From: a bacterium
GTDB lineage: Bacteria > Sumerlaeota > Sumerlaeia > MVZB01
Direction of reading: 5' to 3'
Assembly: GCA_021372575.1 (NCBI GenBank)
Contig: JAJFUE010000185.1
Coordinates: 14,018 to 78,017, forward strand
DNA: 64,000 nt
This document shows positions 17,794 to 35,912 of the stretch, in pieces (position 1 is the first letter of the stretch; each line of letters begins with the position of its first letter). The notes beneath the pieces are model-generated. The model ran no database searches and was not told the origin of the DNA. It worked only from the letters and a program-made list of their open reading frames with translations. Made by a program: the position numbers and the translations under genes.

Positions 17794-18171
17794 ATGGCGC
17801 GCTACATCAACCCACCAAGTCCGATAAGGGGAGTTCTTCTGCTGGAGCTCGCGTTGTCGATGTTGATCATTTCTGTGGCCCTGCTTGGCCTCATGGAAGG
17901 CTACCGCGCATCCACGGAAGCCAATGCGCGTTATGATCGTATGGCGGATTTACAGCTCTTGGCCGACCAGAAGATCGCGGAGCTCTCGCAACAAGCGCAA
18001 TTCAAGACGGGCCAGGACGAGGCTGTTTTCCAAACCAAACCCGACGTGAGTTGGCAAACCGTTACGGCTGAGACTGCTGCCCCGAATTTATACATGATCA
18101 ATTTAGAAGTATCGAAGCAGTCCGATAATTTTCGTATATCCCTCTTTATGAGGCCGAAGAAGGCGCAATGA
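17794..18171 (+). CDS. T2SS minor pseudopilin, GspI-like
   Basis: Prepilin-like N-terminus RG|VLLLELALSMLIISVALLGL (Glu at +5). Small size and a C-terminal beta region (DVSWQTV...LYMINLEVS). Confidence 0.6.
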   Translation: MARYINPPSPIRGVLLLELALSMLIISVALLGLMEGYRASTEANARYDRMADLQLLADQKIAELSQQAQFKTGQDEAVFQTKPDVSWQTVTAETAAPNLYMINLEVSKQSDNFRISLFMRPKKAQ

Positions 18172-19264: not shown

Positions 19265-20337
19265 GTGTTAGTTGCCCCACTCTCCAGCCGGCAGTGCGGC
19301 ATGGCCTGGTTCTGCTTACAGTCAGTTGGAGCGTTCTCCTGCTGACGCTTATTGTCCTTTATGAAATACACTCTGTCGAAATGAGGCGATCGATGCAGCG
19401 CGCTGCCAGCACAGATTTGCAACTTCGAGTCGCTCTCCTCTCCTTGGAGAATCAAATATTTGCGGCGATGGAAAACGATTCGGGGACATCCCAAAACGAT
19501 TGGGACGCCCCATCGGAAGCGTGGGGCTTGCATGCGATCCAGGAGGAGTTTGGAAAATCAATGCAGGAGGCCTACCCGGGGATCGAACTGACCGGCGAAA
19601 TTGAGGATGATGACAGCAAGGTCTCATTGAAGTCGGATGAACCTGACGCACTCCAGGCAATTTTTCAACAGATGGGGCGCGGGGAAATGGAATCGGAGCG
19701 GCTCGCGAAGGCGGTTTCAGCGTGCCTTAAAGAGAGCCCGGCTCAAGATCCCCAAGGCGAAAATGCCAAGAATGCGCCAAGTGAAACAGCCTTGCCCGAT
19801 CTTCGTTTTCTACTAAAAATCCCGAGTATTGACCATGCATTTGTTTTCGGCGAGGATTGTAATTTCAATAATAAGCTTGATGAAAACGAAAACGACGGAG
19901 CGACGAGCCGGCCGATAGACAACGGCGACGGCGTGCTGCAAAGAGGGATCGGACGCGTTCTCACGATCCATGGCGATGGCAAAATCAATCCCAACTTCGC
20001 ATCGCGCGAGGTGCTGGAAACGGTTCCCGGGATTTCCGACCGCATTGCCGAGGAAATCGTCTGGAAGCGCAACGGATCTGATGGAATCCCTGGCACCGAC
20101 GATGATTATGTTTTCCAGAAGGTTGAGGACCTGAAAGAACTGCGCTCGATCTCCAAAATTGACGAACTTGAATACAACAAGATGACTCCCAAGATGCGTG
20201 TGACAAGTAATACATTCACGCTGCGCCTTTGTGCAACCCACCTTCGCTCCATGCAGCGCCACCGCATCCAGATGGTCGTGAAACGGGGCAAGGGGAAGAT
20301 AACCGTTTTGAGTTGTCTGGAGGATTTTGGCTCGTGA
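19261..20337 (+). CDS. gspK: T2SS minor pseudopilin GspK
   Basis: Hydrophobic N-terminal helix lacking Glu5. GspK-type helix-hairpin-helix region INPNFASREVLETVPGISDRIAEEI. Confidence 0.7.
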   Translation: MSVSCPTLQPAVRHGLVLLTVSWSVLLLTLIVLYEIHSVEMRRSMQRAASTDLQLRVALLSLENQIFAAMENDSGTSQNDWDAPSEAWGLHAIQEEFGKSMQEAYPGIELTGEIEDDDSKVSLKSDEPDALQAIFQQMGRGEMESERLAKAVSACLKESPAQDPQGENAKNAPSETALPDLRFLLKIPSIDHAFVFGEDCNFNNKLDENENDGATSRPIDNGDGVLQRGIGRVLTIHGDGKINPNFASREVLETVPGISDRIAEEIVWKRNGSDGIPGTDDDYVFQKVEDLKELRSISKIDELEYNKMTPKMRVTSNTFTLRLCATHLRSMQRHRIQMVVKRGKGKITVLSCLEDFGS

Positions 20338-21761
20338 ACGGAAAACCGCTGCAATTCTTTCTATTCCGCGGGGACGATTTGCTCGTCGTGGATGCGTCCT
20401 ATCGCAACCGCGCGTGGGATGTCATCCGTGCCGAGCGAATCGAGAATGTAGGCGCCTTGTCTGGTGAGGAACTGACGGCCAGCATTCGCGGGCAGGCGTC
20501 CGCGCGCAGAAAAGACACCCAGGCGCGTCATTCGATTCTTGTCCTCGAGCGTACCGAGCTTGCACTGCTGAATCTGGCGTTCCCCAGGGGGGGAGCGGAA
20601 GAGACGGCAGCGATGCTTGAGCTCGAACTCGACCGCCAATTGCCGCTCGAAGCACAAAAGCTTTGCTATGGCCATGCGAAACACTCAGGCGATGGAGAGG
20701 ATCTCGTTCAGGTTTATTGGTCGCCGCTCGATAGAATCGAACCCCTCCTTTCGAAGCTCAAATCGGCGGAAATCGAGGTCGATGAAATCTGCCCCGCGAT
20801 GGCGTTCTACCGGTGGATTTCGGCGGATGCGGCGCCGAACGCATCATTTAATACCCAGTTGTTCATTCATGCAGGCCATATCGAATTGATCCATTGGTCG
20901 GCCCCCGGCATCGTCGGATTCAGCCGATTCTCGTCCGATTCCGAGATTGAACGTTCGCTAACGGCTTTGATTGAACACCGAAACGACGCAAGCCCGATTT
21001 CGTTGTATTCGCCGGAAGCGCAAAAGCAATCCATTTCAGGGCTGTTTGCCGCTATGGGACTGCGGTCAGTCCATGCGATCACGAGATTCGAATGGGCAAC
21101 GAATTTGACGGATGACGAACAGATTGAATTCCTGCCGATTCTCGCAGTGCTCAATGCAATCGACGCGGACTCCCTTTCATCCGGATCGCCTCGACTGACC
21201 TCAACGCTAAACATGCTGCCACGCAGCATCGAGGTTCAGCGTCAGCGGCGCCAGCGGCGCAGGAACATGATTCAGACTGGCGTGCTGGCGCTCCTGTTCG
21301 CAGTGTTGGGAGTTGCCAATCTGATGCTTTACATGAATCGGCTAGCGACGCAAATTAATGCGAACACCGAAGAGATAAAACGTTTGACGCCGGAAGCCAA
21401 ACAAGTCGAAGCGATGGAGGAGCGGATTGCATCAATCCGGAGACAGATCAATTACGTGATTACGCCGATCGAGGCGCTCGGCACCGTCAACAAAGTCCTC
21501 TCCGACCAGGCCGGTCGGCTTGAGGGCCTTTTCCTTGATCATTTTGATTACACGGAAGTCGGGCTCATCACGCTGGAGGGGCATTCAACCAACGATATCA
21601 CCCCATGGTCGTTTGCCGAAGCTCTCGACAAAACCGGGAAATTCAAAATAGTCCAAAAACCCAGGATCGAAATGCACCCATACGGCGAAACACGTGCCAT
21701 TCGTTTTCAACTGAGCTGTCAGGCCCTAACACCTTCAACGAAGGGAGTCGCAACCGAATGA
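20334..21761 (+). CDS. GspL-like assembly protein (PilM-like cytoplasmic domain, TM, PilN-like periplasmic domain)
   Basis: GTGA overlap with gspK. A single TM (GVLALLFAVLGVANLMLYM) sits about two thirds of the way in, followed by a coiled coil. Position is between gspK and a GspM-like gene. Confidence 0.55.
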   Translation: MNGKPLQFFLFRGDDLLVVDASYRNRAWDVIRAERIENVGALSGEELTASIRGQASARRKDTQARHSILVLERTELALLNLAFPRGGAEETAAMLELELDRQLPLEAQKLCYGHAKHSGDGEDLVQVYWSPLDRIEPLLSKLKSAEIEVDEICPAMAFYRWISADAAPNASFNTQLFIHAGHIELIHWSAPGIVGFSRFSSDSEIERSLTALIEHRNDASPISLYSPEAQKQSISGLFAAMGLRSVHAITRFEWATNLTDDEQIEFLPILAVLNAIDADSLSSGSPRLTSTLNMLPRSIEVQRQRRQRRRNMIQTGVLALLFAVLGVANLMLYMNRLATQINANTEEIKRLTPEAKQVEAMEERIASIRRQINYVITPIEALGTVNKVLSDQAGRLEGLFLDHFDYTEVGLITLEGHSTNDITPWSFAEALDKTGKFKIVQKPRIEMHPYGETRAIRFQLSCQALTPSTKGVATE

Positions 21762-22303
21762 TTGGCCGGCTAACTCCCCGCGAGCGGAGAATCATGCTCT
21801 TGACGGTGCTGATCGCGGTCATTGCCGCAGTGCAGATCGCAATCATCCGGCCGGCTGTGGCCCAGTTTCGCCATGTACGCGCCAAGGCAAGCATTTCCGC
21901 CCAGGATCTCTCCCGCTTGAAGAACGTGCTGTCGAATCGTGAAAAAGTCGAAGCCGCATATGAGACGGTTCGCAACCGGATCACCTCCAACAAAACGCCT
22001 GAACGGGAAATCATTGATATCCTGCAATCTGTGCAGCAGGCGGCCGAAGACAGCAAAATCGAGATCCTGCTCAACGTCCACTCCAAGGATGAACCGCTGG
22101 AATACTTCAACATCCACACGATTCAGTTCCAGGGTCGTGGCGAGCTGCCCCAGTTCTTGCAGATGCTTGGGCGTTTGCAGGATCCGCAACTCGGGCTCAA
22201 AGTCACGAACATGAAATTCGTCGTTAAGAATTTCAAACTGGAGGCGGAATTGACCCTGACGCGCGTCGTATATTCCGCTGCGCCGGAAGGAGCGGCCGAA
22301 TGA
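21758..22303 (+). CDS. GspM/PilO-like bitopic protein
   Basis: ATGA overlap with the upstream gene. N-terminal TM RIMLLTVLIAVIAAVQIAII followed by a coiled coil and an alpha/beta domain. Gene order supports the call. Confidence 0.5.
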   Translation: MIGRLTPRERRIMLLTVLIAVIAAVQIAIIRPAVAQFRHVRAKASISAQDLSRLKNVLSNREKVEAAYETVRNRITSNKTPEREIIDILQSVQQAAEDSKIEILLNVHSKDEPLEYFNIHTIQFQGRGELPQFLQMLGRLQDPQLGLKVTNMKFVVKNFKLEAELTLTRVVYSAAPEGAAE

Positions 22304-22752
22304 ACTTGATCTTCTTTCAACGTTCGAAGTTGGCGCTGACCGTTCTGGTCATCGGATTGGCTTCGCTGCTGGTCTGGGGTTCGGCGGGGAATCTCTACCA
22401 GGTCAAATCAAGTCCGCTGCGGCGGCCTGTTGCCAATCTGGATGATCCGCAGGGCGATGCCGTTCCAGACGTTCAGAAGTATATCGGGGTGGCGCAGCAG
22501 CGCGAAATGTTCAAGCAGAGTGTCATCTACGAGACCAAGAAAGGTCCCGCCGTGAACATCCTGGAAGGCATTCAGTTCCTGGGCGTCACCAAGCACGGCG
22601 CTTCAATTCGGGCCATCTTATTCAATAGCAAGAACGGAATCTCAACTTCCTATGCGCCGGGCGAAATGATTGGCGATTTAAAAATAAATGAGATCCGCAC
22701 CGATCGGGTCGTTCTGAGCCACGGTGCCGAGACTTTGGAACTGATTCGCTGA
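22300..22752 (+). CDS. GspC/PilP-like protein
   Basis: N-terminal TM, then a small beta domain ending GEMIGDLKINEIRTDRVVLSHGAETLEL (HR/PilP-like). It lies immediately upstream of the secretin gene. Confidence 0.5.
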   Translation: MNLIFFQRSKLALTVLVIGLASLLVWGSAGNLYQVKSSPLRRPVANLDDPQGDAVPDVQKYIGVAQQREMFKQSVIYETKKGPAVNILEGIQFLGVTKHGASIRAILFNSKNGISTSYAPGEMIGDLKINEIRTDRVVLSHGAETLELIR

Positions 22753-22778
22753 CATTCTGCGATTTTTAAGACAGGGGA

Positions 22779-24986
22779 ATGAGCAAGATGCATCCGACCC
22801 AGCTTTCAATTCGGCTTTACCGCAACATTTTTCTGATTGCGATCTTTGCCGGAATAACGATTCCCGCTACCGCGGCATCGGGCGACCCGGAAAACCAGCC
22901 TGCATGGAAAAGTGTCGCCGAAACCAAAGATGACTCGCGAGTCGATTTGAAATTAAACAATCAACCCATTGAAATGGCCGTATCCATTTTATCGGATGCG
23001 TTGAAACGCACCATCCTCGTGGGTGATAACCTGAGGCAACGGCCGGTTTCCGTTTACTTTCAGAACGTCCCGGTCGAGGACGCGATGAAGGCGTTTTGCA
23101 CCGCGCAGCTTCTCGTTCCGATCGAGCGGAACGGCTGCATCGTACTCGTGGCACGTTCCGAGTATTTGAGCAATTATGCACCGACCCGGATTGAGACCAT
23201 CAAGAATGCCGATCCCGCCATGTTGGCCGGAGTGCTTGGCGATCTTATTCAGAAAAGTGAACTCATTCAGGTCACGTATGACGACCGGACGCGCAATCTC
23301 ATCCTGCGAGGCGATCCGGAACAAATCGAGAAGTTCAGCAAAACCGCCTCGACGCTTGACAAGGCGCTCCGCCGCGAGGTCTTTCCGGTCCGTTATGCTT
23401 CCGTGAACAATATCGCCCAGACGCTGCAGGACACGCTCTATCCAAACTCTTCCGGTCAGAGGGCGGGAGGATCGTCCGGCAATGGCGGCGGGGGGCGCGC
23501 GGGGTACGGCAGCGTAATTGTCGATGAACGCTCCAACCAAGTCATTGTTTGTGAAATACCCGAAAATATCGAATGTTGCAGGTCAATTATCCAAAAGCTC
23601 GACATTCCAATTCAGACCAAAGTCTTCTCAACGGGCAACATCGACCCCAAGGTGGTTGCGGACCAAATCAAAAAAGGCGAACTCGGCGGCAGTACGAACG
23701 AGGCCGCGGGCAGCAAGACCACCGGCCAGACCTCGTCCAGTGGCTCGGGATTCAGACGCGTCAATTCGGAGGCGACCGTTCAGGTCGTCGAGGGAACGAA
23801 CCAAATCATGGTGACTGATACTCCCGAGCGCCTCGAGATCCTCGATAAAGTGATGCGCGAACTGAATCGCAATATCGAAACAATCGTCATCCAGCCGAAG
23901 AACGGACTGCCGACGGATTTGTCAGAGGTGATCAAGGGCGCCTATGCCAACCTGACTGTAGCGGTTGATATGCGTTCAAATTCTATTGTGCTTACCGGCC
24001 ATCATGACCGCGTGGAACAGGCTGCGGATTTAATCCACAAACTCGATTCACAAAAAAACATCAAGGTCGAGATCGAGTCAAAAATCATGATCGTCTCAAC
24101 CAGCAAACTCAATGACCTGGGCGTGCGGTATTTCGGCCAGGACTTGAATGGCCTGAACGAATCGCTGATGAATCTGAATATGAACTCGAATTTCCCGGCC
24201 GATTCGGTCAAGCCCCGCGGGGCGCAAATGGGCAGTGCCCCGGGATCCACTCTCGAGAATCCAACAAAGCATACCAGCAATTTCCTCGAGGCACTTCAGC
24301 CCAATGTCCAGATGCAGGCCATTGTCAAGGCGCTTGAAAGCGATGCCGATACGCAGATGCTTGCCAATCCCAGGCTGCAAATGCTCGCCGGCCAGACATC
24401 CACCTTCTTTTCCGGTTCAAAGGAACCTTACAGTGAGACCACGCTGCAAAACGACACATCCGTGCAAAACGTCAAGTTTATCGATGTTGGGGTGAAATTC
24501 GAGGTCACCCCGCTGGTCCGCCCTGATTATGGCATGACCATCGACGCAAATACTGAATTCAGCTACATGAGCGAACTGCGCAATGGCGTTCCGGTTGTTG
24601 ACACGCGCACCGCGCATTCCATTATTGAAGCGGGGCCCGGCGAAACCATCCTGCTTGGCGGACTGATCAGCAAGGAAGATTCACGGGACCATTCCGGCGT
24701 TCCGCTCCTGAGCAGAATTCCGGGCGTCAAATACCTTTTCGGATCGAAGCGGCGATCGCATGTCGATCGTGAGATGGTGATCTCGATTACGCCCCGCATC
24801 CTGAAGTCGGACTATGTCTTCACCGCGAGCGATTACAACAATATTCGTCGTTCGTTCGAAATGCCTGCGGATCCCTCAAATAGCACGACCAAGACCGGTA
24901 CAGCGAGGACCGTTCCGCCGATAAGCGGCAAACCGATCAAGCCGTCCGTCACGTTGCCAGCCCCGGTTCCGGAGAAGAAGCCATGA
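22779..24986 (+). CDS. gspD: T2SS secretin GspD
   Basis: Signal peptide and repeated N-domains. The secretin core has LANPRLQMLAGQTSTFFSGSKEPY and GVPLLSRIPGVKYLFGSKR...ISITPRIL. Confidence 0.85.
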   Translation: MSKMHPTQLSIRLYRNIFLIAIFAGITIPATAASGDPENQPAWKSVAETKDDSRVDLKLNNQPIEMAVSILSDALKRTILVGDNLRQRPVSVYFQNVPVEDAMKAFCTAQLLVPIERNGCIVLVARSEYLSNYAPTRIETIKNADPAMLAGVLGDLIQKSELIQVTYDDRTRNLILRGDPEQIEKFSKTASTLDKALRREVFPVRYASVNNIAQTLQDTLYPNSSGQRAGGSSGNGGGGRAGYGSVIVDERSNQVIVCEIPENIECCRSIIQKLDIPIQTKVFSTGNIDPKVVADQIKKGELGGSTNEAAGSKTTGQTSSSGSGFRRVNSEATVQVVEGTNQIMVTDTPERLEILDKVMRELNRNIETIVIQPKNGLPTDLSEVIKGAYANLTVAVDMRSNSIVLTGHHDRVEQAADLIHKLDSQKNIKVEIESKIMIVSTSKLNDLGVRYFGQDLNGLNESLMNLNMNSNFPADSVKPRGAQMGSAPGSTLENPTKHTSNFLEALQPNVQMQAIVKALESDADTQMLANPRLQMLAGQTSTFFSGSKEPYSETTLQNDTSVQNVKFIDVGVKFEVTPLVRPDYGMTIDANTEFSYMSELRNGVPVVDTRTAHSIIEAGPGETILLGGLISKEDSRDHSGVPLLSRIPGVKYLFGSKRRSHVDREMVISITPRILKSDYVFTASDYNNIRRSFEMPADPSNSTTKTGTARTVPPISGKPIKPSVTLPAPVPEKKP

Positions 24987-26704
24987 TCTCCGAATCAACA
25001 CGAATATCTGACGGAATGATACGGCAAACTGGAGATTTGCTGGTTCAGAAGGATTGCATTTCGATTGATGAATTAAACCGAGGGCTCCACGAGCAAAAGC
25101 AATCCGGCGGCCACCTTGGAGAAATCCTGTATAGGTTAAGCCGCAATGAGAAACCGGAAATCATGGCGGTTGTCGCCGACAAGCTTGGCTGCCGTTGGGT
25201 GCGCCCAGATCAGATCGAGATCGAACCCGAACTGATCGCCAGATTTCCGGCCCGGCTTGCCAACCACTACCATGCCATCCCTGTGGGTATGGATGGCCCT
25301 CGGCTTGTGATCGCCCATTCGGAGCCGCAAAAGCTCGAAATCAAGGATGAGATCGAACTGCTTATTAACTGCCCTGTATGCATGGCCCTTGCGACCCGCC
25401 AGCATATCGACGAAGCCATTCGGCGTCATTATGGGGTCGGCGCCGAGACCCTCGAGGAAATGCAATCCGAAAATGACCCGGTGCTAGAACTCGAGGGAAG
25501 CGATCTCCATTCTCTCGACGAAGGCGCCGATGAGGCCTCGATCATTCGGTTCGTGAACCAGATCATCCTGGAGGCGCATCGGCTTACGGCGACCGACATC
25601 CATTTTGAGCCGGGCGATGAGTCGTTCAGAATCCGCTACCGCATCGATGGCATGCTCGAGCCGATTCACCTGCCCATCCATGTTCGCCAGTATCAAAATG
25701 CGATCATTTCGCGCATCAAGGTGATGGCGCGCCTGAATATCTCCGAACAGCGCCTCCCCCAGGACGGCCGCATTCAAGTCCGCTTGCACGATGAAAGTCT
25801 GGATCTTCGCGTCTCGGTACTGCCCACACCGAAAGGCGAGGCGCTCAACCTGCGTCTTCTTCGCCGCGCGAGCCTTCACCTGGGCCTTCATCAACTGGGA
25901 TTCGAAGACCACCATTTGAAAACCATTTCCGCCGCGGCGAACCGCCCGAACGGAATCATCATCGTTACAGGTCCGACCGGTTCAGGAAAGACCACAACGC
26001 TTTACGCGCTTCTCGACCAAATCAATTCACTCAATAAAAAAATCATTACCATCGAGGACCCGATTGAGTACCAATTGGCCGGCGTTCTTCAGATGCAGGT
26101 GCACGAGGAGATAGGATTCACGTTTGCGCGCGCTCTTCGCTCGATTCTTCGCCATGACCCAGACGTAGTGCTTGTCGGTGAAATCCGGGATGCCGAAACC
26201 GCCGAAATCGCCATTCGAATGGCGATGACCGGTCATTTGGTGTTTTCAACGCTGCACACGAACGATGCGGCTTCGACAATCGTTCGACTTCTCGACATGA
26301 ACCTGGAGCCCTATCTGCTGGCATCCACGATTCACTGCGTGATTGCCCAGCGCCTTGTGCGATTGAATTGCCCGCACTGCCGGGTGCCCTACCCCGTCGA
26401 TGCCGCGATCATCGAGGCCTTCTCAACTCTTGGCCTAGAGATGCCGAAGCACTTCTATCGCGGCCAAGGCTGCGAAACTTGCCGCCGCTCGGGTTTTATC
26501 GGTCGAACATCGATCCAGGAAGTCTATCCCCTCGATGAGGATTTCGGCGCATTGATTCTCGAACAAGCGCCCGCATCCAAATTCCGGGCGCTCGCGCGGA
26601 GAAAAAATATTCGCATGATGGCTGAGGAAGGCTGGCAGCTTGTTCTGGCCGGCCGCACGACGACAGAGGAAATCCTCCGCGTCACCCAGGCAGTCGAGAC
26701 GTAA
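24983..26704 (+). CDS. gspE: T2SS ATPase GspE
   Basis: MshEN-like N-domain. Walker A GPTGSGKTTTLYA, Walker B/Asp box, the His box, and tetra-Cys CPHC...CETC. Confidence 0.9.
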   Translation: MISESTRISDGMIRQTGDLLVQKDCISIDELNRGLHEQKQSGGHLGEILYRLSRNEKPEIMAVVADKLGCRWVRPDQIEIEPELIARFPARLANHYHAIPVGMDGPRLVIAHSEPQKLEIKDEIELLINCPVCMALATRQHIDEAIRRHYGVGAETLEEMQSENDPVLELEGSDLHSLDEGADEASIIRFVNQIILEAHRLTATDIHFEPGDESFRIRYRIDGMLEPIHLPIHVRQYQNAIISRIKVMARLNISEQRLPQDGRIQVRLHDESLDLRVSVLPTPKGEALNLRLLRRASLHLGLHQLGFEDHHLKTISAAANRPNGIIIVTGPTGSGKTTTLYALLDQINSLNKKIITIEDPIEYQLAGVLQMQVHEEIGFTFARALRSILRHDPDVVLVGEIRDAETAEIAIRMAMTGHLVFSTLHTNDAASTIVRLLDMNLEPYLLASTIHCVIAQRLVRLNCPHCRVPYPVDAAIIEAFSTLGLEMPKHFYRGQGCETCRRSGFIGRTSIQEVYPLDEDFGALILEQAPASKFRALARRKNIRMMAEEGWQLVLAGRTTTEEILRVTQAVET

Positions 26705-26721
26705 AAAGGTGCTCAAGACGA

Positions 26722-27942
26722 ATGCCTATCTATAAGGCCATTGTCAAAAATACCGCCGGCTACAATGTCCAAATCGAGCGACCTGCTTCCTCAAGGAAAG
26801 CCCTGATGGAAGCGCTCCGTGCCGAAGGCCTGTTTCCGCTCAGCATTGACGAACCAGGCGCAGGCACGGCCGATAGCCTTGCTCGCAGCTCCGGCCGTTC
26901 CAAAAAACCTCGCCGCCGCCAGGTTCTCATGTTCATGAAAAATCTGGCCCGCCTGCTCAAGGCGGGAATGGATCTCGAGCGGGCATTGGCAACGCTTGCC
27001 AGGGAAGACAATGGAACCGCCGCGCTTCCGGTCGAGCGGATCGCCGAGCGTGTGCGCCACGGCGACTCGCTCTCGGTCGCAATGGAATCGCTCGATGTCT
27101 TTACCCCTTTCCAGATTAACATCATTCGCGCCGGCGAATTCGGCGGTAATCTGGACGCCGCACTCCAGCGAATCGCCTCGGCGATTGAACGCGAACTGGA
27201 GCTTCGAAGCAAAGTCATCCAGGCCACCGCATACCCGCTTTTCCTGATCTGCTTTGGATTGCTCTCACTGCTGATCATGATGATTTTCATCATGCCGCGT
27301 TTCTTCAAAGTTTATGACGAAATGCATGTTCGCCTACCGATGCTCACGCACATCGTCCTGACTGCGAGTTCGATCCTTCATGCCAACGCGTTTTGGCTGG
27401 TGCCGATGGTCGGCTTCGCCGGATTTTTCGGGATTCGCCAGTTGCTGCACTTGTCCGAAAACGAATCGCTTGACCGCTTGCGCTTCAAATTGCCCCTGTT
27501 CGGCCCACTCATGTTCCAGATGCAGATTCTGAATTTTCTGCGCACGCTGGGTTTACTGGTCCAGAGTGGAATCCCGGTCGCCCAGTCGCTTGCGCTTTTG
27601 ACCAAAATTGCCGGCAGCGCGGTTTTCTCGAAAATAGCGAATGAAATCGAGCAGGGAATTCGTAATGGAAGTCGTCTATCCCAGGAACTTCGCCGCAGCA
27701 ACCTGTTTGGTGAATCGATTGTCAACCTCGTCGCGGTCGGTGAAGAGTCCGGCCATCTCGAATCCATGCTGATCGAAATTTCATGTGATCTCGAAAGGCG
27801 GATCGATGAGTTGATCAAAAACGTTCTCACATTCCTCGAGCCCATTCTCATTCTCGCCGTGGGCGCAATTATCGGCCTCATCGTGATGTCCATGCTCCTG
27901 CCGATTTTCAGCCTGAGCGCCAATCTTCGGGCGGGCGGGTGA
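26722..27942 (+). CDS. gspF: T2SS inner-membrane platform protein GspF
   Basis: Two repeated GspF-type cytoplasmic domains with three TM segments. Size (~400 aa) and position after gspE fit. Confidence 0.85.
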   Translation: MPIYKAIVKNTAGYNVQIERPASSRKALMEALRAEGLFPLSIDEPGAGTADSLARSSGRSKKPRRRQVLMFMKNLARLLKAGMDLERALATLAREDNGTAALPVERIAERVRHGDSLSVAMESLDVFTPFQINIIRAGEFGGNLDAALQRIASAIERELELRSKVIQATAYPLFLICFGLLSLLIMMIFIMPRFFKVYDEMHVRLPMLTHIVLTASSILHANAFWLVPMVGFAGFFGIRQLLHLSENESLDRLRFKLPLFGPLMFQMQILNFLRTLGLLVQSGIPVAQSLALLTKIAGSAVFSKIANEIEQGIRNGSRLSQELRRSNLFGESIVNLVAVGEESGHLESMLIEISCDLERRIDELIKNVLTFLEPILILAVGAIIGLIVMSMLLPIFSLSANLRAGG

Positions 27943-28391
27943 TAGCGATGCGGCGCCGTGTCGGATTCACACTCATCGAGATCATGCTGGTCATGCTCAT
28001 TCTTTCGCTGTTGACGGGAGTCGCCATGACCAGGATGAAAGCGGCTTTTGATGACGCCGCATTGAGCACCGACGCGCAACGGATTGAAAAGCTGATTCAG
28101 GTCGCTCGTAAACGCGCACGACTGGAAAACAAGATCTACCGGATCAGCATCGATCAGAATAATTCCAGCTACACCATGGAACATGCCGCCGCCGCCGAGG
28201 GCACGTTCAAGCATCCTTCTGATATTGATTACGAATATACGCTTTCGGTCGGGGTCACATTTGCTGAGGTGCGCGCAATCAGGGCCAACCAAACACAGCA
28301 TGAATCGATCTATGCCTACCCGGATGGGCAATATGATCCGCTGGCCATCACCCTTATCAACTCCGCCGGCGACACTCGAATCATCGACTGA
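27939..28391 (+). CDS. T2SS minor pseudopilin, GspH-like
   Basis: RRVGFTLIEIMLVMLILSLLTG is a canonical prepilin motif. About 145 aa. GTGA overlap with gspF; an alternative ATG is at 27948. Confidence 0.65.
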   Translation: MIAMRRRVGFTLIEIMLVMLILSLLTGVAMTRMKAAFDDAALSTDAQRIEKLIQVARKRARLENKIYRISIDQNNSSYTMEHAAAAEGTFKHPSDIDYEYTLSVGVTFAEVRAIRANQTQHESIYAYPDGQYDPLAITLINSAGDTRIID

Positions 28392-28489
28392 ACCAGTTAT
28401 TTTGCACATCCAGATCATGAATATGCGCGGTAAAAACCAGCGCATATCGGCCTAGCTGTTCAATAAATCTGAAAATATTTTCACTTCCG

Positions 28490-28516
28490 ATGTTAGATTC
28501 CGCATCCAATCGACAT
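28490..28516 (+). promoter_or_regulatory. ECF-type promoter candidate ATGTTA-N14-TCGACAT (third copy)
   Basis: Same bipartite motif as the two copies upstream of the anti-sigma genes, here on the plus strand 229 nt upstream of the ATG at 28746. Confidence 0.4.
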
Positions 28517-28745
28517 TCATATTCAGAAGGGAAAGCGCATCTTGGAACTGTGCTTTCCACCCCTCCTTGAGACAGTTCAATGTGGTGTCCGTATTCGACG
28601 ACCGCATTCGAATCTTGTCGCGATGGAGGATTCGTGAAAGGAGGTGAACATCAAACAAGCATATCTATCACGGGTCGAGGTTTGGCAATGTTGACAGGGA
28701 ACATTAAACCTGTGTCAGTTTTGTAAGAAAGAAAGGTTGGAGTAT

Positions 28746-29591
28746 ATGAAAGCCAATTTCGTCAGGTCATGCATGATAGCGCTCGCCTTGCTCTCGCTGC
28801 ATAATTTTGCATGCGCCGGCTGGGACACCACCGTGTATGGACCATCATTCTCTGTGAATGTTGCAGGTTATGACGGAGGAGGTGTCCCAGGTGACTCTTG
28901 GTGGCAAAATTCATGGGGGGAATCCACACAAACCAACACACTCTATTATTGCGTGGTGATTATGGAAGGTGCGGTAGAAGTCTCGGACCCGAATGAGCCG
29001 CTGGAAGCCACGACGGAAGGGTATGCATCCTTTGATCGATCCATTCATGAAACTTGGTCCGGTTTGGAACCGCCTACATGTCGGACCGTTTCTGATGATT
29101 TCGAATGCACCGGCACAGAATACATTTGTGTCAATGTGGTTGGCGGCAGTTCCGATGGCAAAGCAGATGGATGGGGACAATCCGCATGCTATTTGTCCCC
29201 TGAAGACCGGTATCTTGGAACCATATTTGACATGTTCAACTTGGAAGTAACGAAGGAGATGACAACGACTGAACTCAAAGCTGGATACTATCACGATTCC
29301 AGCGCTAATCCGGATGTTGTATGGGAAACCAATAATCCCTATGTATATACTGACACCACTGTAACATCGCGTTATGGTGCTTATAACAGTTATAAGGAAC
29401 AGTATAATCCGGATTCCTCAGATGTGGAAGGTTACGCCAACTACCACTGTGCTGGATCCTATTCGACGTACACCAATTCATCTTCCTACAAAAATGACCA
29501 TGGGTATTCATGGGCAAGTGGAAGTGTCCTGGCAACTGCCGGTGGATCCGGTGACTTCTTATCGCTGTCTTCGGTCAGTGTCGCCAAATGA
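28746..29591 (+). CDS. Secreted hypothetical protein, Cys-containing with Y/S/N-rich C-terminus
   Basis: Signal peptide ALALLSLHNFACA|G. GGAG lies before the ATG. Low-GC gene with no recognisable family. Confidence 0.6.
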   Translation: MKANFVRSCMIALALLSLHNFACAGWDTTVYGPSFSVNVAGYDGGGVPGDSWWQNSWGESTQTNTLYYCVVIMEGAVEVSDPNEPLEATTEGYASFDRSIHETWSGLEPPTCRTVSDDFECTGTEYICVNVVGGSSDGKADGWGQSACYLSPEDRYLGTIFDMFNLEVTKEMTTTELKAGYYHDSSANPDVVWETNNPYVYTDTTVTSRYGAYNSYKEQYNPDSSDVEGYANYHCAGSYSTYTNSSSYKNDHGYSWASGSVLATAGGSGDFLSLSSVSVAK

Positions 29592-29609
29592 TCGTTAATT
29601 GGATGTCGA

Positions 29610-29640
29610 GGTACTGCCACCGCTATGCGGTGGCAGTACC
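29610..29640 (+). terminator. Perfect 14-bp hairpin after the secreted-protein gene (no U-tract)
   Basis: GGTACTGCCACCGC-TAT-GCGGTGGCAGTACC. Confidence 0.45.
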
Positions 29641-29756
29641 TGCATATAAGTGCCCATAAATTATATATGTTCAACACATCATTTCTCAGATAAGGTGAGC
29701 ATAATACCGTGCTTTTGACGGTGCTGAAAAGTCGATTATTAAGTTGGAGCTGTCCA

Positions 29757-31523
29757 ATGCTTTTACATAGAACTTCTATGTTGTTGGCTCTGTCAACCAT
29801 CATTCATGCATTCTCTTTGTCATCTTTTTCTTATGCGGTCGAAGTAAATGCGGGCTATAATGGCGGGCCCAAAGGCGTTCACAGTGCGCTCAATGAAAAA
29901 ACGAGCGACATTCGCTCCAAGTTGCAGCAAGTTTTCGAACAGGAAGATTGCACCTTTTTGCTCGCAAAGAAGGAATCCATGGATTCCTTCATGCTGCCCG
30001 TGTTCCTTCCTTTCGAAATGCAACTGAATTCGCCTGATTATTGCCGGGTGCTGCGATTCGAATATGCAGATAGGCCAGTCACTTATCAAGATAATGGCGC
30101 CTTTGCCATTTTCATCAATAATTTGTTCCAGATAAAGAGCATGCGTGACGATCAAGTTCTTGAATACGATTTACGCCAGTCTCGCCATCCATATATTTCG
30201 ACGGAGTACCCGGTTACGTTGCAATCGACCGCGCGATTAACGAAGGACAGCTGCATACTGGATACGACCTGGTACGAACCATATCTGGCAAACCGCGGTC
30301 TTGATTTTACAGCTCATCCTGAGTGTTTGCGGTACGGGTGGGATCGATCCTCACTGATTATGTGGCCACGCTCAACGAATGACGCTCCGATCGTTGAAAA
30401 AATATCCTCGAAGGAGCTCCTATTTGATAATCCAGCTTATATCTATTCACTACTGGACTCGTTGCGGATGCAGAAGGTCGTTTTTCGCGATAATATCAAG
30501 GCTGAAAGCACATCGAGTACGACATCTCGCATCGTAACCGCGGATGGGCGGATCGTGAGAGAGTTTCAAATCACCCATACGGGCTCCGGGAATTATAACA
30601 TCACTATCGTGCAAAAGCCCGTTTTGTTAAATCACAAGTCCTCAAAGATTGCTCACATCAAAAAAGAAACTGGGGGAAAGACGCTAGGGACCGAAAAATT
30701 CCAACCTTCCGCTGATGTGACCTACCTGGGCAGCGGGCGAACGGTAAACATATCATTTGTTGAATGCGTCCAACTTGGGAATAAGCTATTCCCCCATGAA
30801 ATATCTGTCAAGGCGAATGGTCTCACGCTTTATGAGGCCGAAATATTGAATGCTCGACTTGCAAGCAGTACAAAGACGACGTTCGATACGGATGCCCTTA
30901 CCTCAGCGAGCGAAGTTGCAAGAACCAAGAACTTATATAAAATGATCAATGCCCGACAAAAAGGCGACGTTCAGTTGTACTCGGAAAGGGAACTGACCGA
31001 ACCGACCGACGGCCTAACGGCTCGACGTCGCATTAAATTCAACATCATCGCCGCTTCGCATTCCAATAATTTCGAAGTGTTGGATTACACATTACGTGAA
31101 TACAACAACAGGTTAAAAGCAGATCGGTGTAACCCAGTTAACTACGTTTACAGTCTTGAAGCAATCACCGAGCTTGGCTATCGCTATTGCAATCGCGAAG
31201 CTGGAGATCGCTTGGCGTTTGGTTATCTTTCCGACGCATATCGTCAATGCACAGACCAGGAATTGAAAGAGCATGTTATCAGGTTGTTGGATCAGTACCG
31301 CTTGGGTTATGCCCTCATCGCGCTCGACGTCCTGGGCGGGCGAAAACCAACCAATCCAACTGTTGCGGGATGGACGATTACCACAAGAAAGTTTATCATT
31401 AACGTGTTAAACGGAGATGACAAGAACTTCGCAAAACCGGAATATCCCGGATTGAAAGAGATGGAAATCTTAAACGAGACCATATTCGATACTTATAATA
31501 TTCGGAAAGGATCAAAGTCATAA
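29757..31523 (+). CDS. Secreted hypothetical protein (~590 aa)
   Basis: Signal peptide MLLHRTSMLLALSTIIHAFSLSSFSYA|VE. GGAG lies 8 nt before the ATG. Low GC, no recognisable family. Confidence 0.6.
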   Translation: MLLHRTSMLLALSTIIHAFSLSSFSYAVEVNAGYNGGPKGVHSALNEKTSDIRSKLQQVFEQEDCTFLLAKKESMDSFMLPVFLPFEMQLNSPDYCRVLRFEYADRPVTYQDNGAFAIFINNLFQIKSMRDDQVLEYDLRQSRHPYISTEYPVTLQSTARLTKDSCILDTTWYEPYLANRGLDFTAHPECLRYGWDRSSLIMWPRSTNDAPIVEKISSKELLFDNPAYIYSLLDSLRMQKVVFRDNIKAESTSSTTSRIVTADGRIVREFQITHTGSGNYNITIVQKPVLLNHKSSKIAHIKKETGGKTLGTEKFQPSADVTYLGSGRTVNISFVECVQLGNKLFPHEISVKANGLTLYEAEILNARLASSTKTTFDTDALTSASEVARTKNLYKMINARQKGDVQLYSERELTEPTDGLTARRRIKFNIIAASHSNNFEVLDYTLREYNNRLKADRCNPVNYVYSLEAITELGYRYCNREAGDRLAFGYLSDAYRQCTDQELKEHVIRLLDQYRLGYALIALDVLGGRKPTNPTVAGWTITTRKFIINVLNGDDKNFAKPEYPGLKEMEILNETIFDTYNIRKGSKS

Positions 31524-32644
31524 TGAAGACCAATAGTATATATTGCGCCATCCTGGCTATTAGTATATTTATTTTATCAAATAATACAAGGGCTGCCAAC
31601 CATACAATTGTCAGCGACATGTCCAGTGTGATCGGGCAGTCAAAGCTCTCCGATACAAAGAAGGAAATGCTGGTTTCTACACTCAAGGATGTGCTCCTGT
31701 CGGCTCCGGAACTAGATGCAGACAAAAAAAAGACGGCAAAGAGCAATCTCAATATGTACATGTCCGAGAAAATAATGCGGCAGATTGAATGTACCGATGA
31801 ACAATTTAATGTTGTTGCGAAGACATTCAGATACGATCTCGAGAATTATGTTTCCTTGCCAGCAATCAATGATGCGCAGAGAACAGGATCGCTGAAACAA
31901 ATCGATCAACTGAAGAGTATCACGAAGCAATTCATTGAAGAATCATATCCTAATAAGACTTCGGCCGCAAAGAATGAAATATATTCTTTTATTGATAACC
32001 GCCTTACGCAAGATTCCGGAAGGATCGGCAACTATTTGTATCCTTATTTCCTGTATCCCAAAGGGGATGAAGCACCACGCAACGAGCTTGTCGCTGCATT
32101 GAGGAAGTCCATAACCAGCAAGGACAATATCGCCCTGCCTACCATTGTTGAATCATCAAGAATGTACGGTGCAATTCAGAGCGTATTAATCAAAATGTTC
32201 ACCATCGAGAAGGCTCGTAAGGATAATAAATTCAAAGCGGTCCCAAAAGAGTTGTCGAACGAACAAAGAACCTTGTACCAGGAATTACTTAAAACATCAA
32301 AGGCAAAACAAGAGCAGCTTAAGAAACAATTTAAATATCATGAAGTGGTAATGGGAATATCTGCTGGCGCTTCATTCAACAACATTGTCAACGGCATGAA
32401 TGTGGATAAGGTCATGCCCGTAGATGCTGAAACAACCAACAATTTGATAAACAAAGCCGATCCGACCATAAACAAGAAATTGGCGAATGCCGCACCTACA
32501 CCAAAAATCATGGCTGCCGAATCCAAGGATTCCGACATAAAATCCAAGTCTTCGAGAAACCTGCTTATTGCACCAGGCATTTTCATCATAGCGGTGGCTG
32601 TTACCGTCATTTTTATCAGGCGGAGGAATTCCCGCATTAATTAA
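31523..32644 (+). CDS. Lys-rich exported protein with N-terminal signal peptide and C-terminal TM anchor
   Basis: Signal peptide ...NNTRA|AN. The C-terminus is LLIAPGIFIIAVAVTVIFIRRRNSRIN. ATGA overlap with the upstream gene. Confidence 0.55.
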   Translation: MKTNSIYCAILAISIFILSNNTRAANHTIVSDMSSVIGQSKLSDTKKEMLVSTLKDVLLSAPELDADKKKTAKSNLNMYMSEKIMRQIECTDEQFNVVAKTFRYDLENYVSLPAINDAQRTGSLKQIDQLKSITKQFIEESYPNKTSAAKNEIYSFIDNRLTQDSGRIGNYLYPYFLYPKGDEAPRNELVAALRKSITSKDNIALPTIVESSRMYGAIQSVLIKMFTIEKARKDNKFKAVPKELSNEQRTLYQELLKTSKAKQEQLKKQFKYHEVVMGISAGASFNNIVNGMNVDKVMPVDAETTNNLINKADPTINKKLANAAPTPKIMAAESKDSDIKSKSSRNLLIAPGIFIIAVAVTVIFIRRRNSRIN

Positions 32645-33063: not shown

Positions 33064-33173
33064 GCGGCCATTGACCTGCGCGCCGGATTTATATTGAATA
33101 GCCGGAGAGGCGGACGGCCCGCTTGATGCGAACCCGCAATCCGGCACTCCGAGCAAACGATAAATGGAGGGCG

Positions 33174-35912
33174 ATGGAGTTGGCCGAAGACAAAGAATCT
33201 CAGGTCATCAAGGTATTCGTCTCGAACCGGGATTCGATAAAACATTTGAGCGAATTACGTCTGACACCTTCGGGCCATTTGTGTTGGGAGGCCGCGGATA
33301 ACTCGGCCGAGCCAGGGGCGGCCGTGTCGCTGCACGAAGCCTTCGACGCGGACTGGCGCGAAGGTCTTTTTGTTCTCGCGGCGGAGAAAATCGATGGCGG
33401 GGCCGCCCCCAGCCTGCGTTTCTGGAAAGGGATTGCCGAGCAGTTCCTGACGCGGTTGTGTCAGTTGTCCGATGGGATGAAGATCGATCAGGTTTCGCGA
33501 CCGACCGACGCCGAATGCGCCGAGTGGGTGCTCACGGCGCCGCCGATGCACGGGGGTGAATATTTAACGGCCGAAACGTTGCTCGCGATTTGGAACGGGC
33601 TCGTCGAGTGGAGCGAGGTGGCCATTGGGAGTGCCGGCGGGCTGAACGCTTTTCTCGAGGCGCGTGCGCCGCGCTGGCATCAGGTCGGGCGGGTTTGTTT
33701 TCACCTGGCCGAAAACAAGGCCGATGCGGAGCGGCCGTTCGCGTTCATGGCGACGTACGTCACGGGGTTGGGCGCGGCGGGGCAGGCGCGCCACTTGCCG
33801 CTGCGCCAGGCGCTCGAGCAATACTCGGGGGCGAAGAATCGCACCGCGTTGATCAAGCTTTTATCGCCCGTGCAGGCCGCCGCCGAAAGGATCGATTGGG
33901 TCAAGGCGATGGTCGAGGGCGGCGAGATCTACCGGCCGATGGCGTGGACGGCCGAGCGCGCGTATCGATTTTTACTCTCGGTGGCGGCGCTCGAGGAAAG
34001 CGGGCTGACCGTGCGGCTGCCTGACTGGTGGCGGCGGCGCCCGCGTCCGCGCGTGGCCGTGACGATCGGCGAAAACACGCCCGCGCTCCTGGGCATCGAC
34101 TCGGTGCTGGACTTCAACATGAAAGTGGCGCTGGGCGATGAGCAGTTGACCGAAGAAGAAATACGGGAACTGCTGCGCGGCGGCGACGGGCTGGTGCTGC
34201 TCAAGGGGCAGTGGGTCGAGGTCGATCGCGAAAAACTGCGCGAGGCAATCGATCACTGGCAGGCGCTGCGCGGGCAGGTGCGCGAAGGCAGCGTCACGTT
34301 TATCGAAGGGATGCGGATGCTGGCCGGGGCGTCCGAGGATTTGAGTCACGAACATGAAACGGAAACCGTTCGGCCGTGGGCGCACGTCGAGGCCGGCGAG
34401 GGGCTCAAACACATTCTGGCCGGCTTGCGCGATCCGACGCGGCTGGCGGATTCCAGCGACAATGAAAAACTCTCCGGAACGCTGCGCCCGTATCAGCGCC
34501 GCGGTGTGGCATGGCTCAGTTTTCTATCCGAGCTCGGCCTGGGCGCGTGCCTGGCCGACGACATGGGCCTGGGCAAAACGATCCAGGTGCTGGCCTTGTT
34601 GCTTCGCGACGGGAAGAAGTCCGGGCCGTCGCTGCTGGTTGTGCCGGCCTCGCTATTGGGCAACTGGCACGCCGAGGCGGTGCGGTTCGCCCCGACGCTG
34701 CGTCTGGCCTTCCTGCATCCGGCTGAAGCCGATCGCGACGAATTGAAACGGATCGAGAAGAATCCGGCGAAGGAACTGGCCAGCATCGATCTGGCGGTAA
34801 CGACGTATTCGATGCTGGCGCGGCAGGAATGGTTGCACGGGGTGAAGTGGCGGCTGGTCATTGTCGACGAGGCCCAGGCAATCAAGAATCCGGGCACGAA
34901 CCAATCCCGCACGGTGAAGAAACTGCCGGCGCACGCAAGGATCGCGTTGACGGGAACACCCGTCGAGAACCGCCTCGGCGATCTGTGGTCGATCTTTGAT
35001 TTCCTCAATCCGGGCCTGCTCGGTTCGGCCAAGGTTTTCAAGTCGTTCGTGGGCGAACTCGGCGCGCGCGAACACGATCAATACGCGCCGCTGCGCCGGC
35101 TCGTCGCCCCTTACATCCTGCGCCGCATGAAAACCGACCGCTCGATCATTGCCGACCTGCCGGACAAGGCGGAGACAACGCGCTTCTGCAACCTGACGCG
35201 ACGGCAGGCGCAGCTCTACGAGCAGGTGGTCGGCGCGATGAAGAAATCGCTCGAACAATCCGACGGCATCAAGCGCCGCGCGCTGGTACTGCAGACGCTC
35301 ATGCGGCTCAAACAAATCTGCAATCACCCGAGCCAGGCGACGGGCGACGGCGGCTACGCGGCCGAGGAGAGCGGCAAATTCCAGCGCCTCGCCGAAATTT
35401 GCGAGGAGCTGGCCGAACGCCAGGAGCGCGTGCTCATCTTCACCCAGTTCCGCGAGATCATCGACCCGATGGCCTTGTATCTTGCGCACGTTTTCGGCCG
35501 GCCGGGCCTGACGCTGCACGGTGAAACGAGCGTTGCCAAACGCAAAGGGCTCGTCGAGCAATTTCAGCGCGATGATGGGCCGCCGTTTTTCGTGCTGTCG
35601 CTCAAGGCCGGCGGCACGGGGCTCAATTTGACCGCCGCCAGCCACGTGATCCATTTCGATCGCTGGTGGAATCCGGCCGTTGAGGATCAGGCCACCGACC
35701 GCGCATTCCGCATCGGCCAGAAACGCAACGTGCTCGTGCACAAGTTCGTCACGAGCGGCTCGGTCGAGGAGCGCATCGACCAAATGATCGGCGACAAGCG
35801 CAGGATGGCCGCGGAAATTTTATCGGGCGGCGGCGAAGTCGACCTGACCAGCCTGAGCAACGATGAACTGATTGACCTGGTGCGGCTTGATGTCACCCGC
35901 GCGGTGGTGTAA
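33174..35912 (+). CDS. SNF2-family helicase (SWIM-associated type) with a chimeric 5' end
   Basis: LADDMGLGKTIQ (motif I), VIVDEAQAIKN (motif II), LTGTPVENRL, helicase-C motifs LSLKAGGTGLNLTAASHVIHFDRWWNPAVEDQATDRAFRIGQ. The first ~20 codons copy the start of the DUF2293 gene, so the start is uncertain. Confidence 0.85.
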   Translation: MELAEDKESQVIKVFVSNRDSIKHLSELRLTPSGHLCWEAADNSAEPGAAVSLHEAFDADWREGLFVLAAEKIDGGAAPSLRFWKGIAEQFLTRLCQLSDGMKIDQVSRPTDAECAEWVLTAPPMHGGEYLTAETLLAIWNGLVEWSEVAIGSAGGLNAFLEARAPRWHQVGRVCFHLAENKADAERPFAFMATYVTGLGAAGQARHLPLRQALEQYSGAKNRTALIKLLSPVQAAAERIDWVKAMVEGGEIYRPMAWTAERAYRFLLSVAALEESGLTVRLPDWWRRRPRPRVAVTIGENTPALLGIDSVLDFNMKVALGDEQLTEEEIRELLRGGDGLVLLKGQWVEVDREKLREAIDHWQALRGQVREGSVTFIEGMRMLAGASEDLSHEHETETVRPWAHVEAGEGLKHILAGLRDPTRLADSSDNEKLSGTLRPYQRRGVAWLSFLSELGLGACLADDMGLGKTIQVLALLLRDGKKSGPSLLVVPASLLGNWHAEAVRFAPTLRLAFLHPAEADRDELKRIEKNPAKELASIDLAVTTYSMLARQEWLHGVKWRLVIVDEAQAIKNPGTNQSRTVKKLPAHARIALTGTPVENRLGDLWSIFDFLNPGLLGSAKVFKSFVGELGAREHDQYAPLRRLVAPYILRRMKTDRSIIADLPDKAETTRFCNLTRRQAQLYEQVVGAMKKSLEQSDGIKRRALVLQTLMRLKQICNHPSQATGDGGYAAEESGKFQRLAEICEELAERQERVLIFTQFREIIDPMALYLAHVFGRPGLTLHGETSVAKRKGLVEQFQRDDGPPFFVLSLKAGGTGLNLTAASHVIHFDRWWNPAVEDQATDRAFRIGQKRNVLVHKFVTSGSVEERIDQMIGDKRRMAAEILSGGGEVDLTSLSNDELIDLVRLDVTRAVV

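Follow-up and report, generated by a model that had tools for sequence, protein, structure and literature searches.

A candidate ECF promoter cassette that may join the two low-GC flanks of a type II secretion operon in a Sumerlaeota genome

Introduction

The locus described here raises the question of whether genes lying on opposite sides of a secretion operon answer to the same sigma factor. In the window, by which we mean the whole 64-kb stretch of DNA that was analysed, a type II secretion system (T2SS) operon (17773..28391, +) encodes pseudopilins, K- and M-like proteins, a secretin, GspE and GspF, as recognised by Pfam matches of the T2SSG, K-like, M-like, secretin, T2SSE (with MshEN) and T2SSF types. 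On one side of this operon lies a block containing two ECF sigma/anti-sigma gene pairs, and on the other a block of three genes (28746-32644) whose predicted products begin with signal-peptide-like segments. The first-pass annotation had described both flanks as low in G+C, and the composition agrees: 43-49% G+C in both flanks, 50-56% in the T2SS genes and ~60% outside. It had also noticed a short motif in each flank, from which it proposed that the two flanks form one ECF regulon and that the three-gene block supplies regulated cargo for the secretion system. One goal of this study is to establish whether the motif copy downstream of the T2SS operon is a genuine relative of the copies in the sigma block, and what kind of element it is likely to be. 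A second goal is to weigh the regulon and the cargo proposals separately.

A rare intergenic motif in three copies

The motif reported at 28490-28516 (+) is real, and these coordinates delimit the core ATGTTA-N15-CGACAT; the 31-mer CGATGTTAGATTCCGCATCCAATCGACATTC, which spans 28488-28518 (+), occurs once in the window. This copy, hereafter copy 3, lies 97 nt past the stop codon of the last T2SS gene (a pseudopilin gene, 27939..28391), and the 229 nt given for the distance to the first secreted-protein gene is correct when counted from the last core base to the ATG at 28746. A scan of both strands of the 64-kb window with ATGTTA-N10-20-CGACAT yielded exactly three matches against 0.04 expected, and 0 of 100 shuffled windows contained three. 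The computed scan of the whole window thus found no copies beyond the three recognised earlier by eye between roughly 4.4 and 32.8 kb. The other two cores lie at 8553-8580 (-, copy 1) and 12391-12417 (-, copy 2). Each of the three copies lies between genes and points towards the gene that follows it, and each has the form ATGTTA-N15/16-CGAC.

Comparison with other organisms permitted scoring of copy 3 with matrices from which it had been left out. Among 5.8 billion proteins, only three relatives of the window's sigma A exceed 40% identity; we refer to the relatives' contigs as L001 (82% identity), L002 (73%) and L003 (43%). A weight matrix trained on copies 1 and 2 together with the L001 and L002 sites, with copy 3 and L003 excluded, gave copy 3 a score of 34.4 bits, compared with 16.1 bits for the next real site in the window and 17.8 bits for the best site of 30 shuffled windows. 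With a matrix built from the sites of other organisms only, copies 1, 3 and 2 scored 38.3, 37.1 and 25.4 bits, respectively, and with a matrix built from the single L003 site copy 3 ranked first in the window. The extended pattern ATGTTA-N14-15-TCGACAT-N3-WAT-N3-RARGG has three single matches in 596 Gb of GTDB reference genomes, among which the window's own genome is not represented; this is about the number expected by chance and all in unrelated taxa (Candidatus Amphrikana, a chlamydia-like MAG; a Bacillota MAG; and a Sulfurimonas), and 0 matches in JGI metagenome contigs.

The first-pass annotation had additionally pointed to a -10-like half of the motif at 17636-17645, ahead of the T2SS operon. 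That sequence is present, but its meaning as a motif copy is not upheld: ATGTT is fused directly to CGACAT without a spacer, and the score of 13 bits falls within the shuffle range. The heptamer TCGACAT by itself occurs 17 times in the window vs 12.2 expected. The fusion and the 12-mer AATTGAAATATT that follows it lie at 17632-17659 (+); the 12-mer recurs exactly as the AT-rich box ahead of copy 1 (8590-8603, -), a match of marginal statistical weight. No motif copy was found for the T2SS operon itself, and a sigma-70-like TTGATA-N18-TAATAT lies upstream of it at 17656-17685.

Architecture of the shared cassette

When aligned on TCGACA, the three copies share an AT-rich box, (C)GATGTTA, a spacer of 14-15 nt, and TCGACAT-NNN-(T/A)AT-NNN-RARGG; the AT-rich box has the form TGAAA(A)TATTTT and is located about 7-8 nt upstream of the -35-like block. 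In copy 3, the AT-rich box TGAAAATATTTT (28470..28481, +), which the alignment shows to be common to copies 1 and 2 and L001/L002 and which may act in the manner of an UP element, is followed by the -35-like block CGATGTTA (28488..28495, +), identical in copy 1, L001 and L002. The -10-like block TCGACAT (28510..28516, +) begins after a further 14 nt, which leaves 15 nt from ATGTTA to CGAC. The predicted transcription start and the first transcribed bases fall in the conserved box ATATTCAGAAGG (28519..28530, +), which matches the L003 site at 12 of 12 positions and fits the general form TAT-N3-RARGG present in all copies. Copy 1 reads CGATGTTA-N15-TCGACAT plus the downstream box (8539..8582, -) and is positioned 56 nt past the sigma A stop and 35 nt before the anti-sigma A start codon; copy 2 reads AAATGTTA-N14-TCGACAT plus the downstream box (12377..12419, -) and is positioned between sigma B and anti-sigma B.

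The blocks are fixed, while the spacer differs in sequence among the three window copies and varies by 1 nt in length, and it is this combination that gives the motif its likeness to a two-block promoter. Its form does not look like that of an RNA structure or a dyad operator, and a dyad operator was rejected as a reading given that the copies have no dyad symmetry. ECF-dependent promoters pair a -35 and a -10 block some 15-17 nt from each other in intergenic DNA facing a gene, and the distance of 15-16 nt from ATGTTA to CGAC is within this range, as in the sigmaW and sigmaE consensus sequences; the common ECF promoter pattern is 'AAC / CGT', from which the TGTTA / CGAC blocks differ. Other promoter classes were considered and set aside. 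The sigma-70 consensus is TTGACA-N16-18-TATAAT, in which the -10 hexamer has A as its second and T as its sixth base, and a sigma-70 reading of the copies as TTGAAA-N16-TGTTAT/G lacks the conserved -10 A; a sigma-70 promoter scan of 28200-28900 returned no plus-strand site. The sigma-54 promoter element is GG-N10-GC (TGGCAC-N5-TTGC), and no such element overlaps or just follows any copy; window-wide, matches stand at chance level (38 vs 31).

Between copy 3 and the ATG at 28746, which is preceded by a Shine-Dalgarno GGAG, the predicted 229-nt leader carries near its 5' end the hairpin GGAAAGCGCA...TGTGCTTTCC, followed by CCCCUCC (28530..28558, +; -14.3 kcal/mol, z = -3.0), and further along a 48-codon ORF (28580..28726). 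The hairpin is not conserved in the other motif copies, the leader shares nothing with the L003 leader beyond the promoter and start box, and an Rfam search of 27900-29000 produced no match at E<=1. On the upstream side, a hairpin without a U-tract (28421..28447, +; -16.2 kcal/mol, z = -2.25), 30 nt past the T2SS operon stop, may form the 3' end of that operon. A scan for canonical terminators found none between the T2SS operon and copy 3 and none along the minus-strand array of the sigma block.

The sigma and putative anti-sigma genes

Sigma A (8639..9202, -) matches Pfam regions 2 and 4 and scores 60.9 bits with TIGR02937 against a cutoff of 42.9; sigma B (12470..13030, -) matches Pfam Sigma70_r2 and r4_2 and scores 54.6 bits against the same cutoff. 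Both contain regions 2 and 4 only, the composition that defines the ECF (group 4) family, and none of the NCBIfam subfamily models reaches its cutoff with either protein. The two sigmas are 34% identical and have different region-4 helices. The best PDB matches of sigma A, both weak, are CnrH of C. metallidurans (9e-8) and SigL of M. tuberculosis (3e-6).

Class I zinc-binding (ZAS-type) anti-sigma factors have HxxxCxxC in an N-terminal helical domain, are encoded beside the sigma gene and usually continue with a membrane-spanning segment. Here, the putative anti-sigma A (7810..8517, -) has the HxxxCxxC zinc motif followed by membrane-spanning segments, and the putative anti-sigma B (10946..12361, -) has HxxxCxxC, one membrane-spanning segment and a large C-terminal domain. 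The N-terminal 160 aa of anti-sigma B are 39% identical to anti-sigma A, and H52-x3-C56-x2-C59 together with hydrophobic segments occurs in both. Scores with family models lie below their cutoffs (Pfam zf-HC2, 19.8 bits vs 22.2; NF052375, 27 vs 100). The best PDB match of the N-terminus, chain B of 3HUG, is weak (E = 0.013) and extends across the HxxxCxxC region; 3HUG is the SigL-RslA complex, and the matched chain is the anti-sigma RslA. An AlphaFold model of the N-terminus shows four helices and a membrane-spanning helix, at a pLDDT of only 49.5.

Read on the minus strand from 17478 to 4535, the gene order is two TPR/beta-helix proteins, sigma B, copy 2, anti-sigma B, a MauE/thioredoxin-like protein, sigma A, copy 1 and anti-sigma A. 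The remainder of the copy 1 operon (4535..7761, -) follows on the same strand and encodes three proteins, in a gene order shared with L001 and L002: first a 15-Cys protein that has a double-glycine leader, next a secreted protein of 331 aa, and last a C39 peptidase that also contains DUF1573. The leader of the 15-Cys protein (7216-7761, -) reads ...LSDSQMQAIHGG/DCCGG, and the protein has a weak TIGR04149 match; the C39 peptidase (4535-6106, -), encoded in one operon with it, carries the DUF1573 Ig-like domain in place of an ABC transporter. The block is further flanked by genes for a PAS histidine kinase and a sigma-54-dependent (NtrC-type) response regulator (1025-4452, -), and a sigma-54-like TGGAAAGGATTTTGCA (4540-4555, -) lies ~88 nt before the kinase start, although such matches occur at chance level window-wide.

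The first-pass annotation had presented the motif as a link to the sigma/anti-sigma block. The motif is indeed shared with that block, but copies 1 and 2 lie between sigma and anti-sigma genes and not upstream of a sigma gene. No motif was found before sigma A (9203-9507) or before sigma B, and the same holds in L001-L003. As no sigma-upstream copy occurs in any of the four lineages, direct positive autoregulation through the motif is not indicated. ECF sigmas usually have a promoter upstream of their own gene through which they are autoregulated (PMC7826278). The present sigmas, which have no upstream motif of their own, depart from this norm in a less common but known way (PMC7826278), and the departure is not disqualifying given that ECF32 (PMC7826278) and rseA P3 (PMC8595263) are exceptions too.

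Conservation of the motif and its neighbourhood in related loci

Contigs L001 and L002 have the same gene order as the window's sigma A block, and no part of the sigma/anti-sigma spacer is better conserved in them than CGATGTTATAAAATCG.CC..TT.CGACATGT.TATG. In L003, the sigma gene directly follows the T2SS gene gspE and is itself followed by GGTTGC-N14-TCGACAC-CTATATTCAGAAGG, the last 12 bases of which are identical to copy 3; past this motif come a leader of ~320 nt and a gene for a Cys-rich membrane or secreted protein. The same region of L003 contains a run of 13 G (9560-9580) and an ISL3-type transposase fragment (10390-10818), and its operon may be disrupted or partly misassembled.

The motif is present in L001, L002 and L003-L006 and absent in L007-L013. 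In seven related T2SS loci, searched for 10 kb on either side of GspF, neither the motif nor the sigma was found; the GspF proteins of these sigma-less loci are 46-78% identical to that of the window, and the closest is annotated as Candidatus Sumerlaeia. As negative controls, we used 80 ECF sigmas of <=34% identity recovered from a metagenome search with the sigma alignment, and ~480 kb of sequence around them contained no motif. Its absence both from sigma-less T2SS loci and from distant-ECF loci shows that the motif tracks this sigma clade: it is conserved beside orthologous sigmas and missing where the sigma is missing, as a promoter recognised by that sigma would be.

The sigma block is also tied to the T2SS by conserved neighbourhood, as seen from the position of the MauE gene, which in relatives lies inside or right after the T2SS operon and in the window lies in the sigma block. 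In relatives (L003, and L001 combined with L007) the sigma block follows the T2SS and runs in the same direction, whereas the window has it inverted and on the opposite side, a difference in placement that shows rearrangement. The junction between the T2SS and the three-gene block is not an assembly artefact, since an independent assembly (L097) reproduces the order T2SS, copy 3, orphan block at 99.99% identity.

The MauE/DoxX-like membrane protein, which has a fused thioredoxin-like domain, is encoded at 9508-10539 (-) in the window and at 11772-12728, 3816-4847 and 8894-9934 in L007, L009 and L011, respectively. Its association with this type of T2SS is conserved, with the gene lying between gspE and gspF in some relatives, and suggests a role in disulfide handling of secreted proteins. 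Additionally, where the window has copy 3 and the three-gene block, L007 (12872-13198) and L008 (3501-3872) have a phage-integrase fragment after T2SS-MauE, the closest relative there being a Ca. Sumerlaeia MAG, and the position appears to be a hotspot of gene exchange.

Alternative readings of copy 3

That copies 1 and 2 resemble each other merely through duplication of the sigma/anti-sigma genes, with copy 3 a random match, would be the simplest dismissal of the regulon. The first two copies do precede paralogous genes, and their likeness alone therefore proves little. However, the 18 positions common to them all predict copy 3, for which our own calculation gives an expectation of ~4e-6 per window; the pattern is matched three times in 596 Gb, and the leave-out score of 34 bits stands against a shuffle maximum of 17.8. 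We assign this reading a negligible probability: a chance origin of copy 3 is excluded, effectively refuted.

Two other readings accept copy 3 as real and differ on what it does. It is possible but improbable that the conserved module is the site of another regulator, for example a repressor or activator contacting the spacer and the TAT-N3-RARGG box, or the promoter of some other alternative sigma, merely travelling with the ECF genes. Sigma recognition requires neither the spacer, in which TAAAATCG.CC..TT persists as far as the 43%-identity lineage, nor the box downstream of the -10 block that is conserved in all copies, and the PAS histidine kinase and sigma-54-dependent response regulator adjoin the block, with the kinase adjacency kept in L002. 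Yet the copies have neither dyad symmetry nor a GG-N10-GC in or just after them, the plus strand of 28200-28900 has no sigma-70 consensus, and across loci the motif follows the presence of the ECF sigma. We consider it distinctly improbable that copy 3, although a real cassette, is a relic of rearrangement or drives no more than a leader RNA or small ORF, with the block genes transcribed by read-through out of the T2SS operon or from a different start. Such a reading would draw on the inversion of the sigma block relative to its relatives, which marks a rearrangement, on the long structured leader with its 48-codon ORF, and on the want of a canonical terminator between the T2SS operon and the block; set against these, all functional blocks of copy 3 are intact, its score with the foreign-trained matrix is as high as that of copy 1, and the Shine-Dalgarno sequence before ATG 28746 is good. 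A long leader is also compatible with a working ECF promoter, as the 228 nt of rseA P3 illustrate (PMC8595263).

A probable ECF promoter and a proposed regulon

The reading we prefer, and regard as likely, is that 28488-28530 is an ECF promoter that places 28746-32644 in a regulon with both anti-sigma operons. The earlier proposal of one ECF regulon for both low-GC flanks thus gains computational support from the rarity of the motif, its non-circular recovery, its conservation in three lineages and its absence where the sigma is absent; the two flanks share one ECF-type motif and hence probably one regulon. Several features nevertheless weaken the promoter reading. Two sigmas of 34% identity and with different region-4 helices would share one core, which is unusual if their specificities differ; the start-region box and the conserved sigma-A-type spacer go beyond what sigma recognition needs; a 229-nt leader with a strong 5' hairpin intervenes between copy 3 and the gene; and the TGTTA / CGAC blocks are unlike the common ECF form. 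In addition, the 281-aa protein gene that copy 3 precedes has no homologue, and the block, a strain-specific one, is missing from relatives.

Of the two candidate sigma factors, encoded 16-20 kb from copy 3, sigma A is more likely to read it, since copy 3 has the same CGATGTTA and CAGARGG box as the sigma-A-type sites and scores 37.1 bits with the foreign-trained matrix vs 25.4 for copy 2. Sigma B may also read copy 3, the spacer of which equals that of copy 2 in length.

In the mechanism that we propose, each sigma would at rest be held by its membrane-bound zinc-motif anti-sigma. A signal would free the sigma, and RNA polymerase carrying it would start transcription at three sites with the cassette AT-rich box / (C)GATGTTA / 14-15 nt / TCGACAT / start region TAT-N3-RARGG. 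The pair that lies directly before anti-sigma genes would provide negative feedback, and copy 1 would in addition bring about co-expression of the Cys-rich double-glycine-leader protein, the 331-aa protein and the C39 peptidase. The third, before 28746..32644, would switch on the three secreted-protein genes with the same signal. We infer sigma binding, the position of the transcription start, read-through of the 229-nt leader into the genes and exit of the products via the adjacent T2SS. Neither the minus-strand array nor the gap between the T2SS and copy 3 contains a predicted canonical terminator. Read-through probably adds to expression, and it may include a cascade from sigma B to sigma A. 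The regulon link is well supported in silico, and the mechanism so conceived is conventional, an ECF sigma/anti-sigma module with its target promoters in an uncultured lineage; ECF signalling as it is understood remains unchanged by the finding.

Parallels with known systems are partial. E. coli rseA P3 is a sigmaE-dependent promoter that drives rseABC with a 228-nt 5' leader (PMC8595263). It resembles the present case in placing an ECF promoter directly before an anti-sigma gene, with sigma-driven negative feedback, and the leader lengths compare closely (228 nt vs 229 nt for copy 3). Unlike the motif here, which is intergenic, rseA P3 lies inside the rpoE coding region; rpoE has its own sigmaE-dependent promoter, whereas neither sigma gene here is preceded by the motif; and the rseA P3 consensus is unrelated. 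In P. aeruginosa, sigmaVreI/VreR (PUMA3) is encoded beside the Hxc T2SS and raises the expression of nearby genes that encode components of secretion and secreted proteins (PMC2729926). The likeness lies in an ECF sigma/anti-sigma pair encoded beside a T2SS. However, VreI is a FecI-like sigma of the cell-surface-signalling type that is paired with a FecR-like regulator and a receptor, whereas the anti-sigmas here are of the zinc-motif HxxxCxxC type, and VreI up-regulates the hxc machinery, whereas here the motif is found only at flanking genes and not at the T2SS operon. SigL-RslA of M. tuberculosis and CnrH of C. metallidurans are the nearest solved relatives of the sigma and anti-sigma proteins, by weak matches, and the TGTTA / CGAC blocks presumably do not resemble the published SigL consensus. 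HrpL of plant pathogens, a member of ECF32, acts at a bipartite hrp box before scattered, horizontally acquired genes for secreted proteins. It shares with the present system a non-autoregulated ECF sigma and a bipartite box before secreted-protein genes, and differs in serving type III secretion, in having no known anti-sigma factor, and in activation mechanism, sigma group and consensus. ECF32 has been described as not autoregulated (PMC7826278).

If the promoter reading is true, it would provide a concrete ECF regulon from an uncultured lineage that has scarcely been studied and whose nearest relative is a Candidatus Sumerlaeia genome, a sigma/promoter pair with a rare consensus that could possibly be used as an orthogonal switch, and a regulatory context for genes otherwise without annotation or homologue.

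The three-gene block as possible cargo

Past copy 3, the block encodes a 281-aa, 8-Cys protein (28746..29591, +), a 588-aa protein (29757..31523, +) that belongs to a small family without annotation, and a 373-aa protein (31523..32644, +) with a C-terminal hydrophobic anchor and basic tail. All three have signal-peptide-like N-termini, judged by eye from a basic-hydrophobic-AxA-like pattern; substrates of type II secretion carry an N-terminal Sec or Tat signal peptide. The description of the block as orphan holds for the 281-aa protein, for which a search of 5.8 billion proteins returned nothing but itself and the AlphaFold model reaches a pLDDT of 29, but not for the 588-aa protein, which has 49 distant relatives. 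These relatives, found in 1.8 billion representatives, are at most 38% identical and mostly ~580-600 aa long (range 119-977 aa); the family has no Pfam or PDB match, and its members are annotated just as 'hypothetical protein'.

Support is mixed for the proposal that the products of 28746-32644 are regulated cargo of the adjacent T2SS. It is favoured by the adjacency and co-orientation of the block with the T2SS, by the signal-like N-termini, by the conserved sigma-T2SS-MauE neighbourhood, and by the published precedent of Hxc, a T2SS that is up-regulated together with its substrate by the adjacent sigmaVreI (PMC2729926). It is disfavoured by the absence of homologues of the three block proteins from all related T2SS loci examined, so that the block genes show no conserved linkage with secretion genes of the kind that would mark T2SS substrates, and by the 281-aa protein having no homologue anywhere in the search. 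The T2SS operon, moreover, has no motif and an apparent sigma-70-like promoter, and the 588-aa family is unannotated.

If the promoter reading is true, the locus as a whole also points to a conserved association in which Cys-rich proteins, a C39 peptidase and a disulfide protein of the MauE type go together with the T2SS. A bolder and, in our estimate, doubtful extension would be that a single mobile, undescribed module of Sumerlaeota-like bacteria serves secretion and maturation and comprises the ECF pair or pairs and the T2SS together with the C39 peptidase, the MauE/thioredoxin-like protein and the Cys-rich double-glycine-leader protein. It would take up strain-specific orphan genes as cargo once they gain a promoter cassette of ~60 bp composed of the AT-rich box, the -35 and -10 blocks and the conserved start-region box; in such a module both sigmas would read the cassette, and the start box would add a second layer of control.

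Genomic context

The window begins close to a tRNA-Asp gene (77-154), the 3' half of which recurs as direct repeats at 39448-39504 (95% identical) and 55143-55199 (82% identical), an arrangement that suggests tandem integration of two genomic islands at tRNA-Asp. The first of these putative islands contains the entire ECF/T2SS cluster, and the contig of the independent assembly L097 breaks exactly in the repeat at 39.4 kb. The upstream sequence and first codons (32832-33237) of a SNF2-family helicase gene (33123..35912) are duplicated at 40254-40788, 7.4-7.6 kb downstream, with 73-84% identity, and the first copy of this duplication begins right at the end of the low-GC block. Further along, inside a minus-strand ORF (44411..45541), an 81-nt (27-codon) unit occurs six times in tandem at 44801-45301, with 63-71% identity.
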